A DNA stretch of 28,850 bases, taken from a virus. Lineage: Duplodnaviria; Caudoviricetes. The position numbers and the translations under genes were made by a program. How positions within the stretch are numbered: the stretch's first letter is position 1; the number at the start of each line of letters is the position of its first letter. The notes beneath the pieces are model-generated. The model had not been told where the DNA came from. It did no database searches and saw only the letters and a program-made list of their open reading frames with translations. This document shows positions 7,171 to 24,628 of the stretch, in pieces. The stretch lies in the IMG/VR virus record IMGVR_UViG_3300032305_000626, positions 1-28,850 of that record, one strand, 5' to 3'.

Positions 7171-7200
7171 GCCAAAATACTAAAAACACTATTTATATAT
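7171..7200 (+). promoter_or_regulatory. Candidate phage late promoter, copy 2
   Basis: GCCAAAA at 7171, CACTATTTATATAT at 7187, directly abutting ATG 7201. Confidence 0.7.
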
Positions 7201-8094
7201 ATGCTACCTATTTACAAGTTAGTAATTAACGAAGAAGACGAAACGGGGGTGGAATTTGTTTCACTTGTTACAAATCCTGCAATCGAAAAGGACTTTTTAT
7301 ATTTCAACAGACACGAGTTTTTTAACGACTATCCGCAAAGTGCAAGTCAAAACGCACAACGTGGAATTAACCTAAATGCAAAAGTCAATAACGATTGCGC
7401 TACGTTGGTAGGGAAAAATCGTTCAAGGCAATTAGTAGCACGTGAAAACCTATCCATTGAAACAATAAAACGCACTTATTCTTATTTGAGTAGAGCAAAA
7501 GAATACTACAATCCAAACGACACAAAAGCGTGTGGAACTATTAGTTATTTATTATGGGGTGGTGATGAGATGTTGAGATGGACTGAAAGAAAGTTAGAAG
7601 AGTTGGAATTAAGCAAAGCACGAAAGAAGTTCAGCATCCAAGACGAAGAGAAAAGGATAATATCTGGACCTGCAATGATTGCTGATTTACCAATTTATCG
7701 CTATGACGAAGCACGTGGGGAATACTATGTGGTATTTGACAAAGAAACCATTTTTCAAATTGCAAAGAAGTGGGCAATGGGGGATAAATACGATAGTGTT
7801 AACATACACCACGACAAAGCAACAAATGGACTTTCATTGTTTGAATCATTCATCATTGATCGTGAGCGTGGAATAATGCCACCAAAAGGATATGAAGAAG
7901 TAGCGGATGGAAGTTGGTTTTTGTCATATATCGTTAATGACGAAACTATTTGGCAAAAGGTAAAAGACGGAGAGTTTAAAGGGTTTTCAGTAGAGGGGTA
8001 TTTTGACTTTGACGAATCGCAAGAAGATAAAATAGTAAACGCTTTGATGAGCAAGTTAAAAACCATTGCAGGGAAATGGAACGGAAAAAATTGA
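7201..8094 (+). CDS. XkdF-like putative prohead serine protease with inserted helical domain
   Basis: RIISGPAMIAD, VNIHH, GSWF and VKDGEFKGFSVEG match the XkdF-like phage protease pattern; sits upstream of scaffold and capsid. Confidence 0.75.
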   Translation: MLPIYKLVINEEDETGVEFVSLVTNPAIEKDFLYFNRHEFFNDYPQSASQNAQRGINLNAKVNNDCATLVGKNRSRQLVARENLSIETIKRTYSYLSRAKEYYNPNDTKACGTISYLLWGGDEMLRWTERKLEELELSKARKKFSIQDEEKRIISGPAMIADLPIYRYDEARGEYYVVFDKETIFQIAKKWAMGDKYDSVNIHHDKATNGLSLFESFIIDRERGIMPPKGYEEVADGSWFLSYIVNDETIWQKVKDGEFKGFSVEGYFDFDESQEDKIVNALMSKLKTIAGKWNGKN

Positions 8095-8124
8095 GCCAAA
8101 AAAACCAAATCACTAATTATATAT
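8095..8124 (+). promoter_or_regulatory. Candidate phage late promoter, copy 3
   Basis: GCCAAAA at 8095, CACTAATTATATAT at 8111, ATG at 8129. Confidence 0.7.
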
Positions 8125-8128
8125 AAAA

Positions 8129-8680
8129 ATGAACAGTAAAGAAGTAATTCAGGAAATACGCTCATTGTTGGGGTTTTCCGATGAAACTAAAACAGAAATG
8201 GCAACAGCCACATTGATTGACGGAACTATTGTTGAATGGGAAGGCGAACTTGCCGTTGGAACTGCAATCTTCGTTCAAACTGGCGAGGGGTTAATCCCAG
8301 CACCTGACGCAACTCACGAAGTTGAAGGTGGGATGCTTGTTACAACCGTTGATGGAATCGTTACCGAAATCGTTGAAACTGAAACAGAAGTAGAGGTAGA
8401 AGTAGAAGCATCTGAATTTGCATCACTTGAATCGTTCAACTCGTTAATGTCAGCATTTAATGACGCAGTTAGCCGTTTAGAAGCACTTGAAAAGAAATTA
8501 GTTGAAACAGAATCCAAGTTCAACTCAATGAAATCTGTATTTAGCAAAACAGTTGATTTGGTAGAAGCGGTTGCAAACCTACCATCAGAAGAGCCAACAA
8601 AAGCACCATCAAAAGAATTAAGTAAAAAAGAACAACAATTCGCAAACATCGTAAAATTAGCACAACAACTAAAAAAATAA
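8129..8680 (+). CDS. Putative capsid scaffolding protein
   Basis: Very acidic 183 aa protein with C-terminal coiled coil, between protease and capsid genes. Confidence 0.6.
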   Translation: MNSKEVIQEIRSLLGFSDETKTEMATATLIDGTIVEWEGELAVGTAIFVQTGEGLIPAPDATHEVEGGMLVTTVDGIVTEIVETETEVEVEVEASEFASLESFNSLMSAFNDAVSRLEALEKKLVETESKFNSMKSVFSKTVDLVEAVANLPSEEPTKAPSKELSKKEQQFANIVKLAQQLKK

Positions 8681-10129: not shown

Positions 10130-10152
10130 TTTCTTTGTTTTTCATGATTCGG

Positions 10153-10184
10153 AGGGGATAAGTTAATTCTTATCCCCTTTTTTT
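10153..10184 (+). terminator. Rho-independent terminator
   Basis: Perfect 10-bp stem AGGGGATAAG/CTTATCCCCT, loop TTAATT, followed by a T tract. Confidence 0.9.
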
Positions 10185-10186
10185 AT

Positions 10187-10216
10187 TCCAAAAAGTTAAA
10201 AACGCTAATTATATAT
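10187..10216 (+). promoter_or_regulatory. Candidate phage late promoter, copy 4
   Basis: TCCAAAA at 10187, CGCTAATTATATAT at 10203, immediately after the terminator and before ATG 10218. Confidence 0.7.
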
Positions 10217-10217
10217 A

Positions 10218-10577
10218 ATGCTACAAATAAACAAGGGCGAAACGAAGTCGTGGTACTTGACACTTACTGAAAAGGTTACTATCGCTAATCCGAAGTTTTT
10301 ATTTGTATTTGTCAATCGTTTAACCAATTCAGAAACAGCCGTAATACTTACAGACGTTTCCAACTATAAAGAGCGTTACAACCAGTTTAACGTAATAGAG
10401 GGAACTACATTCACACTTGATCCGTGTGAACATTTATATCAAGTTTACGAGCAAACAAGTAACAGCAATTTAAACCCTTTAAACGCTACATTGATTGAAG
10501 TAGGGGTTTTAAAGGTAACAGAGATTTTTCAAGGTCAAACAGAATATAATCCCACACTAATAGAAAAAACATTATGA
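10218..10577 (+). CDS. Hypothetical virion protein
   Basis: 119 aa beta-rich ORF in structural region, coupled to next gene. Confidence 0.6.
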   Translation: MLQINKGETKSWYLTLTEKVTIANPKFLFVFVNRLTNSETAVILTDVSNYKERYNQFNVIEGTTFTLDPCEHLYQVYEQTSNSNLNPLNATLIEVGVLKVTEIFQGQTEYNPTLIEKTL

Positions 10578-17813: not shown

Positions 17814-18318
17814 GGAATTAGGCGAGGACTTTGCAAACTTTAACCCGTCGGGAGATGGGTTACTTCGTATTGTGCAGAATTGGGGCAACGAGGTTTCAAA
17901 TCGTATGCGTATAGATTTGCGTAAAAACAAAACAAACGCTTCACAGACGCTTTCTCAATCAATCGCATCAATAGCAAAGCCAACACCAAAAGGATTTAAT
18001 TTAAAGGTTGAAATGCAGGATTACTGGTATTGGATTGAATACGGTAGAAAGCCAACCCGTACAAAATCCCCAAGCAATCCGACATTAGTTCAATCGTTAG
18101 AGCAATGGATTGTAGAAAAGAAAATACAAACCCGTACAAGTTCAACTCAAAGCCGAGCCGAAACGGTTAAAGCGTTAGCGGTAATTATTGCCCGAAAGAT
18201 ACACCGCAAAGGAACGAAAGCACAACCATTCGTTGCGCAAAATGTAAACGATAAAATGCGACAAATACTATCCGATAGGATGGGCGAGTATATAGCAAAG
18301 TCATTAGGAGGGGATTAA
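17791..18318 (+). CDS. HK97 gp10-like tail completion/neck protein
   Basis: DYWYWIEYGRKP and IARKIHRKGTKAQPF motifs; basic; start at ATG 17791. Confidence 0.65.
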   Translation: MPTNKSIEELGEDFANFNPSGDGLLRIVQNWGNEVSNRMRIDLRKNKTNASQTLSQSIASIAKPTPKGFNLKVEMQDYWYWIEYGRKPTRTKSPSNPTLVQSLEQWIVEKKIQTRTSSTQSRAETVKALAVIIARKIHRKGTKAQPFVAQNVNDKMRQILSDRMGEYIAKSLGGD

Positions 18319-18333
18319 TTTCCCCTTTTTTTT
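18309..18333 (+). terminator. Rho-independent terminator closing the late region
   Basis: AGGGGA-TTAATT-TCCCCT followed by T7; stop codon lies in the loop. Confidence 0.85.
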
Positions 18334-18353
18334 GCTATTTTTTGTAAAATAAT

Positions 18354-22492: not shown

Positions 22493-22707
22493 AAAACAAA
22501 ATACAAGATTTACGCAACCATCTATTCGAGCAAATAGAGCGTTTAAGCGACGACGAATTAAATTTAGATAACGAGGTTAAGAAAGCACGTGCAATGGCAG
22601 AAATTGCTTCACAGATAGTTGAAACGGCACGTGTTGAAGTCCAATATATTCGTGCTATTGGTACAACTCAAAAAAGTGATTTTATACGTTTGGAAAGTCA
22701 AAACTAA
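22489..22707 (+). CDS. Conserved hypothetical phage protein (DLRNHLF..ERL type)
   Basis: MKNKIQDLRNHLFEQIERL...ARAMAEIASQIVETA pattern. Confidence 0.7.
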   Translation: MKNKIQDLRNHLFEQIERLSDDELNLDNEVKKARAMAEIASQIVETARVEVQYIRAIGTTQKSDFIRLESQN

Positions 22708-22719
22708 TTAGTATATTTG
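22689..22719 (+). promoter_or_regulatory. Bacteroidota housekeeping-sigma promoter for the replication operon (P3)
   Basis: TTTG 22689-22692, 19-nt spacer, TATATTTG 22712-22719. Confidence 0.8.
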
Positions 22720-22731
22720 TATAGTATTAAC

Positions 22732-22814
22732 GAATCGGGCAGGATTCAAAAAGAACTTTATACCCTCTTTGGGTTTTGTGGACTGCCCTCTGCAAAATTC
22801 ATTGAGGGTTTTTT
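22732..22814 (+). ncRNA. Candidate cis-regulatory leader RNA: two hairpins with complementary loops, ending in a U tract
   Basis: GAATC-[GGGCAG]-GATTC and a 19-pair stem (4 G-U, one 2x2 U mismatch) closing loop CTGCCC; T6 at 22809-22814; ATG at 22819. Confidence 0.7.
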
Positions 22815-22818
22815 ATTT

Positions 22819-23418
22819 ATGCAAGAATTAGGAAAGTACGTTATTATTTATACTGATATGTTAGAAAAACTAACATACAGACAAGCCATATTGTTTGGAG
22901 TATTAAACGGAATGGCAGTAAAAGAAAGTTATTGTTACGCACGTAATAAAACACTATCAAAGATATTGAATTGTAGTGAAGATAGCATACAACGTGATTT
23001 AAACGTTTTGCAGAAATTAAAATACATTCACCGTGAAATTGAACGCAATGATAAAATGGAAGTAGTGTCAAGAAAAATCTATACCCTCACCGCTACTTTG
23101 CACCTACCCCTCACCGCTGAATTGCGGATACCCTCACCGCTGAATTGCGACAACAATAAGAATAATAATAATAATATAAATAATAATAGAGGGGATAAAC
23201 GCCAACACACCAAATTTGTTATTCCAACAATAGAAGAAATACAAAATGAGTTTCCTAAATTAGATGCACAAAGATTTCACGATTTCTACACCGCAAAAGG
23301 ATGGATGATTGGTAAAAACAAAATGAAAGACTGGAAAGCAACTGCACGAAATTGGTTGAGAACAGATAAAAAAGAAACTACTACACAAGGTTATAAAAAA
23401 CTACAATTAGATGATTGA
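22819..23418 (+). CDS. Phage replication initiator / replisome organiser
   Basis: N-terminal wHTH (CYARNKTLSKILNCSEDSIQRDL), internal iterons, C-terminal FYTAKGWMIGKNKMKDWKATARNW; precedes DnaB. Start placed at ATG 22819, not TTG 22717. Confidence 0.8.
   Translation: MQELGKYVIIYTDMLEKLTYRQAILFGVLNGMAVKESYCYARNKTLSKILNCSEDSIQRDLNVLQKLKYIHREIERNDKMEVVSRKIYTLTATLHLPLTAELRIPSPLNCDNNKNNNNNINNNRGDKRQHTKFVIPTIEEIQNEFPKLDAQRFHDFYTAKGWMIGKNKMKDWKATARNWLRTDKKETTTQGYKKLQLDD
23081..23190 (+). repeat. Probable replication origin: three iterons plus AT-rich tract
   Basis: CCCTCACCGCT at 23084, 23108 and 23131 (last two extend to GAATTGCG), followed by an AAT-rich run. Confidence 0.8.
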
Positions 23419-24628
23419 GATAAATATAGTAGCATCGTTGATGCAGAGCGACTATGCAAAGGCATTTCTTGGTAAAACAGATCCTTTATGGTTTAGCGGT
23501 TTTAACCAACACATTGTACGTGCTTTAAAAGATATGTATTATTCAGCGCAACCAATTTCAGTAAATGCGTTGTTTAAGATATTCCCACAACAAGCATACG
23601 AATTAAGTCAAATCTATTCGGCTATCAGTTCCGACAAAAGCATTGAAAGCGATTTGCTGATATTGGAATTTGAATACAAGAAAAAGCAATTAATGAATGA
23701 CTTAATGCAGATTGACGAAAAGAAATCACTTGCAGAAATTCAAAGCGTGTTAACTGAAAGTTTAGAAAAAAGCAGAATAAGCGTTTTAGACCGTTCATTT
23801 ACAATTACCCAAGTTTCGGGGGAAGTATTGGATAGAATAGCGGACGCAGTTAATAGAGGCGATAATTTACAAGGCATAAGCACTGGTTGGAAATACCTTG
23901 ATAAATTTATGGGCGGTTACCATAAAGGGAATTTAATAATTGTTGGTGGAAGACCTGGAATGGGTAAATCTGCACTTGGGTTAAGTTTATCGGTTGACTG
24001 TTGCAAGTGGGCAAATGTTTTATTCTACACGATTGAAATGAGTAAAGAGGAATTAGCGCAAAGGTATATCAGTTATTTCAGTAATGTTGAGAACTACAAG
24101 ATCCGTAACGCTTCAATCACATTAGCACAGATAGAAGATATGAGCAACACTATGTATTCATTAGATAAAGATTTTCACATTATTGATAGCACAAATAGAC
24201 ACATAGACCATATTTCAGCACAAATAAGATTGCACAAGGTTAAATACGGCTTAAACATTGCTATAATTGATTATTTGCAGTTAATTGATGGTAACGCAAA
24301 GAGTAGATATGAAATCGTTTCAGAAGCATCTAAACGGCTAAAACAATTAGCAAAGGAGTTAGGGATAACAGTTATCGCACTGGCACAGTTAAAGCGTGAG
24401 GAAAAGGCAAGTGATAAACCAAGTTTAAGCGACTTAAAAGAAAGCGGACAACTTGAACAAGATGCAGACGTTGTATTGTTTCCATTTAGACCGAGTTACT
24501 ATTTAGAAGACAAACCTGAAATAGAAATGGATAGCGAATTAATTATTGCCAAGAATAGGCACGGACAATGCGGAAGTATTCCGATGGCATTTGAAGGTAA
24601 ATTTACACGATATAAAGAGATATTATGA
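23411..24628 (+). CDS. dnaB: Replicative DnaB-like helicase
   Basis: Walker A GGRPGMGKS, IIDYLQL, LAQL, DLKESGQLEQDAD, IAKNRHG. Confidence 0.95.
   Translation: MIEINIVASLMQSDYAKAFLGKTDPLWFSGFNQHIVRALKDMYYSAQPISVNALFKIFPQQAYELSQIYSAISSDKSIESDLLILEFEYKKKQLMNDLMQIDEKKSLAEIQSVLTESLEKSRISVLDRSFTITQVSGEVLDRIADAVNRGDNLQGISTGWKYLDKFMGGYHKGNLIIVGGRPGMGKSALGLSLSVDCCKWANVLFYTIEMSKEELAQRYISYFSNVENYKIRNASITLAQIEDMSNTMYSLDKDFHIIDSTNRHIDHISAQIRLHKVKYGLNIAIIDYLQLIDGNAKSRYEIVSEASKRLKQLAKELGITVIALAQLKREEKASDKPSLSDLKESGQLEQDADVVLFPFRPSYYLEDKPEIEMDSELIIAKNRHGQCGSIPMAFEGKFTRYKEIL

Follow-up and report, generated by a model that had tools for sequence, protein, structure and literature searches.

The leader that precedes the replication initiator gene of the phage described here carries two hairpins whose loops are complementary to each other. 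Judged from sequence comparison across its relatives, this kissing-loop leader is real, widespread and conserved as a control element, and it probably decides how frequently transcription reads through into the replication genes. We know of no RNA control of the replication genes of small aquatic phages. The evidence is laid out from the single locus to the family, and then to the mechanism that the element may serve.

The leader and the replication locus in the window

The window analysed is the whole virus record of 28,850 bases, with an estimated completeness of 92%. Its gene content is that of a tailed phage (portal, head protease, endolysin, Erf and YqaJ recombination proteins and DnaB, assigned with Pfam and PHROG), and the features of the replication locus are collected in Table 1. 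The iteron-like repeats, with spacings of 24 and 23, all lie within the initiator gene, and by analogy these 19-nt repeats and the AT-rich stretch likely form an origin of replication inside that gene; we take the arrangement to resemble an origin of the lambda O kind. The -7 box and the TTTG upstream of it match the Bacteroidetes promoter consensus, which points to a Bacteroidota host. A 72-aa ORF at 22489-22707 matches PHROG 2044, "RNA polymerase beta subunit", a label that looks wrong at such a size.

Table 1. Leader and replication locus of the phage (positions in the 28,850-base window)
Feature	Position	Strand	Basis
-33 promoter element TTTG, predicted	22689..22692	+	sequence; PMC6847099 consensus
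-7 promoter element TATATTTG, predicted start ~22724-22725	22712..22719	+	PMC6847099 consensus
Hairpin 1: 5-bp stem, loop GGGCAG (22737-22742), -3.8 kcal/mol	22732..22747	+	folding
Linker, 14 nt, A-rich then U-rich	22748..22761	+	sequence
Hairpin 2, terminator-like: 6-bp base, 13-bp upper stem, loop CTGCCC (22783-22788)	22762..22809	+	folding
Loop-loop helix, 22737-22742 with 22783-22788, 6 bp	22737..22788	+	covariation
U-tract: T6 (22809-22814) then ATTT, up to ATG 22819	22809..22818	+	sequence
Replication initiator, 199 aa, N-terminal HTH_36	22819..23418	+	Pfam PF13730; PHROG 428 and 270 (replication initiation protein)
Iteron-like 19-nt repeats at 23084, 23108 and 23131, then AT-rich stretch	23084..23190		sequence
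DnaB-like replicative helicase, overlaps initiator stop	23411..24628	+	Pfam PF03796; PHROG 19

The two hairpins and the perfect complementarity of their loops had been proposed in an earlier note on this DNA, and on refolding and re-reading every coordinate given there is right. Hairpin 2 consists of 19 pairs (-24.5 kcal/mol), with a 2x2 U/U internal loop between the base and the upper stem and four G-U pairs in the upper stem. The reading of these G-U pairs as a sign of plus-strand RNA agrees with the fold of the opposite strand of hairpin 2, which reaches just -13.2 against -24.5 kcal/mol. The region of the element has a folding z of -4.2, and none of 200 shuffles equals it. In the window, the consensus terminator scan did not call hairpin 2, because the internal loop interrupts the stem. 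The leader of the window holds no ATG, and a TTG-started frame of 20 codons lies buried in hairpin 2. How often would such a pair of loops arise by chance? Over 20,000 shuffles of one locus, a 6-nt complement is found in the shuffled upstream 45 nt in 3.2% of cases, and within a hairpin loop on a stem of at least 5 bp in 0.065%. Taken by itself, and allowing for a search across the genome, this last figure would be only modest evidence; it is the family that decides.

The leader has a predicted length of 94-95 nt, counted from the position of the promoter. The -33/-7 consensus is that of Bacteroidetes promoters, in which the -33 element is only weakly conserved (PMC6847099). Boxes resembling the -7 element arise by chance about once per 1.3 kb per strand, and the TANNTTTG motif alone is without enrichment in the window (53 vs 43.7 expected). 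Of the 60 retained members of the family described below, 58 have a -7 box 1-25 nt 5' of hairpin 1, a count to be read with the fact that retention itself rested largely on the box. The earlier observation that the other host promoters are nearly leaderless is borne out by the three other intergenic boxes that precede genes (18377, 20682 and 27408), all of them 3-4 nt from the ATG. These boxes predict leaderless mRNAs, and ATG 18388 is probably the true start of the ORF that is listed from TTG 18382. A common motif of another kind, CTAATTATATATA or CTATTTATATATA, stands immediately 5' of ATGs in the structural region (~7180-7203, 8107-8131 and 10196-10220); it is unlike the host -7 box and is a candidate late promoter. 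The window also contains ordinary G-C-rich terminators followed by T runs, at 10151-10178 and ~18308-18335, which have no hairpin-borne kissing partner.

The start codon can be fixed with the help of two sister phages, L161 and L162, whose DnaB proteins are 97-98% identical to that of the window. In L161 the leader is 99% identical and the N-terminus of the initiator is unrelated (47% DNA identity over 300 nt), the divergence beginning directly 3' of the ATG. In L162 the gene start and the upstream DNA are each 93% identical, but the leader is only 66% identical and has another loop pair. Leader and initiator have thus been exchanged independently of each other; this settles the start codon and excludes the loops as sites to which the initiator binds. 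A translation start at TTG 22717 is rejected, since it overlaps the promoter box, since L161 shares the leader and diverges directly after ATGCAA, and since that frame is open through the element in just 13 of 58 members.

A family of kissing-loop leaders

Searches with the initiator and DnaB proteins give 163 loci, of which many are fragments or belong to other phyla; 28 of the 163 share the design but have loops of other sequence. Loop-blind sets were obtained with patterns made of the terminator arms alone, with or without the promoter box. Of the 120 loci in the arms-only scan, 53 form long hairpins, and loop pairing occurs in 19 of the 21 that lie behind a promoter box and in 0 of the 32 that do not. 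With promoter and arms together, loop pairing is found under strict rules in 24 of 40 viral-contig loci and, in a later set, in 19 of 40; the same scan of bacterial genomes gives no strict kiss among 10 long hairpins. Counted over the window and 523 loci, a complement of at least 6 nt at a distance of 12-34 nt accompanies 84 of the 112 distinct long hairpins with the box and 11 of the 171 without it. Clustering at 85% leaves 67 clusters, of which seven (L080, L176, L192, L249, L408, L448 and L516) were left out for lacking a Bacteroidota promoter box, and the remaining 60 leaders are taken as the family. These 60 non-redundant leaders hold 52 distinct loop pairs, and when loops are swapped between members they match in 141 of 3540 combinations (4.0%).

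The pairing of the loops is supported by covariation. Given a plain MAFFT alignment and no structure, RNAalifold picks the loop-loop helix as consensus. In the unfitted alignment all seven loop pairs show double changes, with 82.9% paired as compared with 57.6% after shuffling and 24-52% in slid controls. In the model-fitted alignment (52 distinct rows), where the fitted model covers the two hairpins and not the kiss, the loop helix again has double changes at 7 of 7 pairs and is 96.3% paired; the best-kept loop pair is kept in 47 of 52. Across the family the stem of hairpin 1 has double changes at 5 of 5 pairs (95% paired) and hairpin 2 at 18 of 19, and the whole structure in the fitted alignment is 91.7% paired vs 63.2% shuffled and 38-44% slid. 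Type II leaders, defined below, show the covariation of the loop helix likewise. These percentages lean high because members were partly chosen for the complement, and the loop-blind counts and paired contrasts are the fairer tests. When 26 disjoint nearest-neighbour pairs are compared, pairing is preserved by 30 double changes and broken by 5 double and 6 single ones, and all six of the single changes fall in two of the most distant neighbour pairs. Covariation in homologous leaders had been named in the earlier note as the check to make; the loop complementarity is indeed kept with different letters, and all seven pairs are compensatory. The note had placed a loop-loop element in the leader of the initiator: covariation upholds the intramolecular pairing, and the element is not tied to one initiator.

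The members fall into two subtypes. In type I, to which the window belongs, loop 1 has about 7 nt and the ATG lies a median of 11 nt 3' of the stem (9 nt in the window). In type II, loop 1 spans about 14 nt, the kiss comprises 8-9 pairs, a GAA/GGA internal loop is frequent, and the ATG is found at a median distance of 24 nt. The kiss is 6-9 bp long in most relatives. Each of the 21 distinct examples selected by protein has a hairpin 2 of 44-48 nt, and the length of the linker is 15.7 ± 2.2 nt over 56 members, the doubtful members L418, L387, L301 and L303 being excluded from the geometry estimate. Within the 8 nt 3' of the stem, 59 of 60 members have 6-8 T. G-U pairs account for 18% of the pairs in the stems, and in 54 of 56 cases the sense strand folds more stably than its complement, so the structure is that of plus-strand RNA. 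A Firmicute-type variant with a longer first hairpin and an SD-like purine run after the U-tract is represented by six loci with two loop codes; it is missed by models R1 and R2 and may be analogous rather than homologous. One of the omitted clusters, L249 (299-409, minus strand), is type II-like, with a 7-nt kiss, no Bacteroidota box and GGAGG after the U-tract, and is possibly a version of the element in another host phylum.

Some further regularities can be read from the alignments. The frequent GAA/GGA internal loop of type II occupies columns 63-66 and 87-90 of the alignment, and loop 1 of this type has a conserved AC-A-N-N-AUA tail; we presume that stacked G-A pairs are possible in the internal loop of its hairpin 2. 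In type I, an ATG lies over the stem-loop junction of hairpin 1 (columns 11-16) in 22 of 52 rows, with an immediate stop in 11; it is absent from the window and is probably a by-product of the consensus. Some ATG frame of at least 8 aa lies inside the element in 38 of 60 members, as a raw count.

The model search finds one copy in 32 of the 37 virus records searched and two copies in none, and the five misses are carriers that the model overlooks (three type II, two Firmicute-type). Cultured carriers are the Flavobacterium and Cellulophaga phages tooticki6-1, elemoC_14-1A, phi13:2, phi18:3, phi19:3 and phi46:3, which have harmless environmental hosts and were found through the DUF6291 protein; a direct nucleotide search of cultured phages gave no match. 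Phage tooticki6-1 (L566, MN812240) has two copies 1 kb apart with different loop codes (1098-1196 and 2133-2245), one 5' of an HNH/NUMOD4 endonuclease gene and one 5' of an initiator-primase operon, and phage RAP44 and a Porphyromonas phage have no element at their initiators. The downstream genes, for which 77 ORFs were scanned, are mostly DUF6291, HTH_36 or Lin1244-type initiators, and otherwise encode HNH/NUMOD4, GIY-YIG and T5orf172 proteins, methylases, BT4734-type primase domains, Rha or small ORFs; no transporter is among the 77. When a gene of another kind comes first, it is often followed by an ORF that resembles an initiator, as judged from N-termini. The element thus usually heads a replication operon and sometimes nuclease or methylase genes. 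In bacteria, model R2 gives 0 matches in 128 Flavobacteriales-order genomes, with 32 of more than 1,000 candidates per genome scored, and a pattern search matches 18 of 185 such genomes, about as many as the reversed control. By eye, among the match starts listed, genome G080 alone of the 185 has a real element. Its two copies (L535 and L544, on contigs C146 and C154) are near-identical, of type II, with one loop code and on short contigs, and they are probably binned phage DNA.

A possible attenuator and its alternatives

We turn to what the element may do. The account that we propose, and in which our confidence is about even, is a cis-acting kissing-loop attenuator that makes up the entire 5' leader of the replication operon and in which the kiss would permit read-through. 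Host RNA polymerase would start just 5' of hairpin 1. Loop 2, once it has emerged, would pair with loop 1 while the 3' arm of hairpin 2 has yet to be transcribed, and the short linker would then let the upper stem zip while keeping the G-C-rich base open, leaving the terminator incomplete and allowing the polymerase to read into the initiator and helicase genes. With the ATG close, as in the window, the open base would also free the ribosome-loading region. Transcripts that miss the kiss would complete the terminator and stop at ~90 nt, and the share of read-through would depend on a folding race, itself subject to polymerase speed, Mg2+ and temperature, or on some further factor.

Several calculations bear on this attenuator. 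When the growing transcript is folded, the optimal fold contains the loop 1-loop 2 helix at lengths of 66-78 nt and the terminator from 84 nt onwards, so there is an interval in which the kiss can form first. The full hairpin 2 (-24.5 kcal/mol) far outweighs the 6-bp loop duplex (-10.1 kcal/mol), and the effect must therefore be kinetic. With assumed lengths of 2.8 Å per pair, 6 Å per nt and, if wound, 6.9 Å per pair, a straight linker in the 56 members would barely span the kiss and the full stem together (-1.0 ± 1.8 nt), and a linker wound round the stem would leave 5.7 ± 1.3 basal nt open. The linker might have to wind in this way because the polymerase holds the 3' end, and the open nucleotides would correspond roughly to the 6-bp base of the window. 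Type II leaders, with their distant ATG, and the six Firmicute-type loci, with the SD-like run 3' of the U-tract, all keep the U-tract; since it persists also where the ribosome site is out of reach of the hairpin, the terminator is the common denominator.

Several points count against the attenuator: the searches described below bring up no regulator, many initiators lack the element (it accompanies just 28 of the 163 protein-selected loci and is absent at those of RAP44 and the Porphyromonas phage), a ligand-free kiss of 6-9 bp could simply be constitutive, and the straight-line geometry, on the assumed lengths, allows the kiss and the full terminator to coexist. Put as an explanation of its own, the kiss and the full hairpin would stand side by side in a compact fold without switching, protecting the 5' end of the mRNA or making the terminator uniformly leaky or stronger. 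The strength of a Watson-Crick kiss that needs no ligand, the failure to find a regulator and the just-permissive straight linker all fit with this, as does the finding that none of 15 Bacteroidota-type carrier records has a tyrosine integrase, hence no evident lysis-lysogeny need. A terminator-grade U-tract ahead of essential genes and the fixed combination of a 44-48-nt stem with a 14-18-nt linker are nevertheless better explained by tension between the kiss and the base of the terminator, for which the guanidine-IV riboswitch is a precedent, and we regard a constitutive role as rather unlikely. Control of translation, in which the hairpin at the start codon would set ribosome loading, the kiss would open or lock its base and termination would be minor, is in our judgement simply unlikely. 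It draws on the nearness of the type I stem to the ATG and on the lowering of initiation by structure between -20 and +20 in F. johnsoniae, a non-SD user (PMC6847099), but the median of 24 nt in type II, the U-tract that is always kept and the SD-like run outside the hairpin in Firmicute-type loci all speak against it.

The loops might instead find their partners in other molecules. Released 90-nt leaders could pair with nascent leaders of the same code, giving feedback by copy number or co-infection, with the codes acting as incompatibility groups. Near-identical phages that swap leaders independently of the initiator (L161 and L162; phi18:3 vs phi13:2), the two copies with different codes in tooticki6-1 and the low rate at which swapped loops match would suit such pairing in trans; both loops, however, would be occupied by an intramolecular kiss, and several loop codes recur across clusters. 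Nor is diversifying selection on the loops seen: their rate of change does not exceed that of the remaining positions, the 12 closest pairs holding 2 double changes. A search for a trans partner in 11 genomes finds no complement above cross-genome controls, the longest G+C-containing exact matches (G-U unscored) being 8-13 nt for the own leader and 8-17 nt for foreign leaders. We hold action in trans to be quite unlikely, and give an equally low probability to a composite in which a ligand-free, topologically gated attenuator operates across lytic Bacteroidota phages and its released leader also acts in trans by loop code. Very unlikely, in our view, is control of the kind known from pT181 or IncI plasmids, with an antisense RNA or a protein covering one of the two loops and thereby driving termination. 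The leader of a rep gene with an exposed loop is a classic target (PMC8383071) and the minus strand of the window has a -7-like box at 22958-22965, but antisense -7 boxes are not enriched (12/60 vs 6/43, 6/42 and 11/42), the chance rate of such boxes is the high one given above, and the loop letters vary independently of the downstream protein. Finally, the loops form an inverted repeat of near-fixed spacing beside a gene for a DNA-binding protein, and could be read as operator half-sites for the initiator, or the hairpin as acting in single-stranded DNA. We reject this reading at the level of DNA as exceedingly improbable: L161 joins the shared leader to another initiator N-terminus, L162 joins the shared N-terminus to another leader, the G-U content and the stability of the sense strand indicate RNA, hairpin 2 as DNA reaches just -8.8 kcal/mol, and the iterons are inside the initiator gene.

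The family offers dozens of loop codes, largely orthogonal to one another and all built on one scaffold, as a natural library. It makes testable whether a kiss alone, free of ligand, blocks a terminator by linker tension, as proposed for guanidine-IV, and it may be of use as a phage marker or as a tunable part for gene expression in Bacteroidota. If the reading in trans is true, expression of the replication genes would sense the genome copy number or co-infecting kin, and the swappable loop codes would be RNA incompatibility groups among lytic phages.

Comparison with known systems

In plasmids, the control of IncI-alpha repZ is coupled to the repY leader peptide. Like the phage leader, the repZ leader of ColIb-P9 has a hairpin loop that pairs intramolecularly with downstream sequence ahead of an initiator gene; it differs as a plasmid system that is translational and controlled by Inc antisense RNA, and the partner of its loop is not a terminator loop (PMC8383071). 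The phage family belongs to tailed phages and has neither enrichment of antisense -7 boxes nor a conserved leader peptide. In pT181 and pIP501 an intrinsic terminator in the rep leader gates synthesis of the initiator, as the phage terminator, identified by structure only, might do; these systems as described in PMC8383071 need a countertranscript and two mutually exclusive folds and, unlike the phage leaders, have no loop-loop helix onto the tip of the terminator. The IncI and pT181 plasmids, which the earlier note had offered as comparators, are thus not the closest ones: the counts of -7 boxes, the search for trans complements and the reading frames brought up no antisense RNA or leader peptide of their kind, and the architecture of guanidine-IV is nearer.

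The statement that the element belongs to no named family agrees with Rfam 15, which has no match at the gathering threshold in the window and 18 loci; with relaxed cut-offs, the matches up to E = 10 are chance ones only, and 8 loci give none up to E = 2. In the literature, with limited coverage of subscription journals, no description of the element was found. Fremin et al. 2023 (PMC10690425) list the anonymous candidates DNAVirus_8377, _1270, _4859, _1203 and _3182, which like the phage leaders are 80-106 nt long and have HNH/NUMOD4/GIY-YIG or initiator-type genes at most 25 nt away. Four of these are aquatic and one is from gut Firmicutes, DNAVirus_8377 has a predicted terminator and Bacteroidetes hosts, and the main text of that paper makes no mention of kissing loops. 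Compared by length and gene context alone, parts of the family may already be catalogued there, notably as DNAVirus_8377 and DNAVirus_1270.

The guanidine-IV riboswitch (GGAM-1/mepA motif) shares with the family a small 5' hairpin, a terminator hairpin with a U-tract, kissing loops and a position in the 5' leader. Competition between the kiss and the base of the terminator through a shortening linker was proposed (PMC7736828) and then shown (PMC11611296) for this riboswitch, and the short linker of the phage leaders would set the kiss against the terminator base in the same manner. The full-length RNA in the guanidine-IV study mostly ends as terminator. The guanidine-IV loops, however, are at least 97% conserved and bind guanidine, whereas the phage kiss consists of 6-9 Watson-Crick pairs without a ligand and its loops come in 52 codes in 60 leaders; guanidine-IV sits 5' of sugE/mepA-type genes in bacterial genomes, and the phage family 5' of replication genes. 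Membership in guanidine-IV is rejected on the divergence of the loops and on the 77 downstream ORFs, among which no guanidine-related gene is seen. As far as sequence and predicted fold can tell, the phage kissing-loop leaders are a family absent from Rfam, built like the guanidine-IV riboswitch yet not a member of it.
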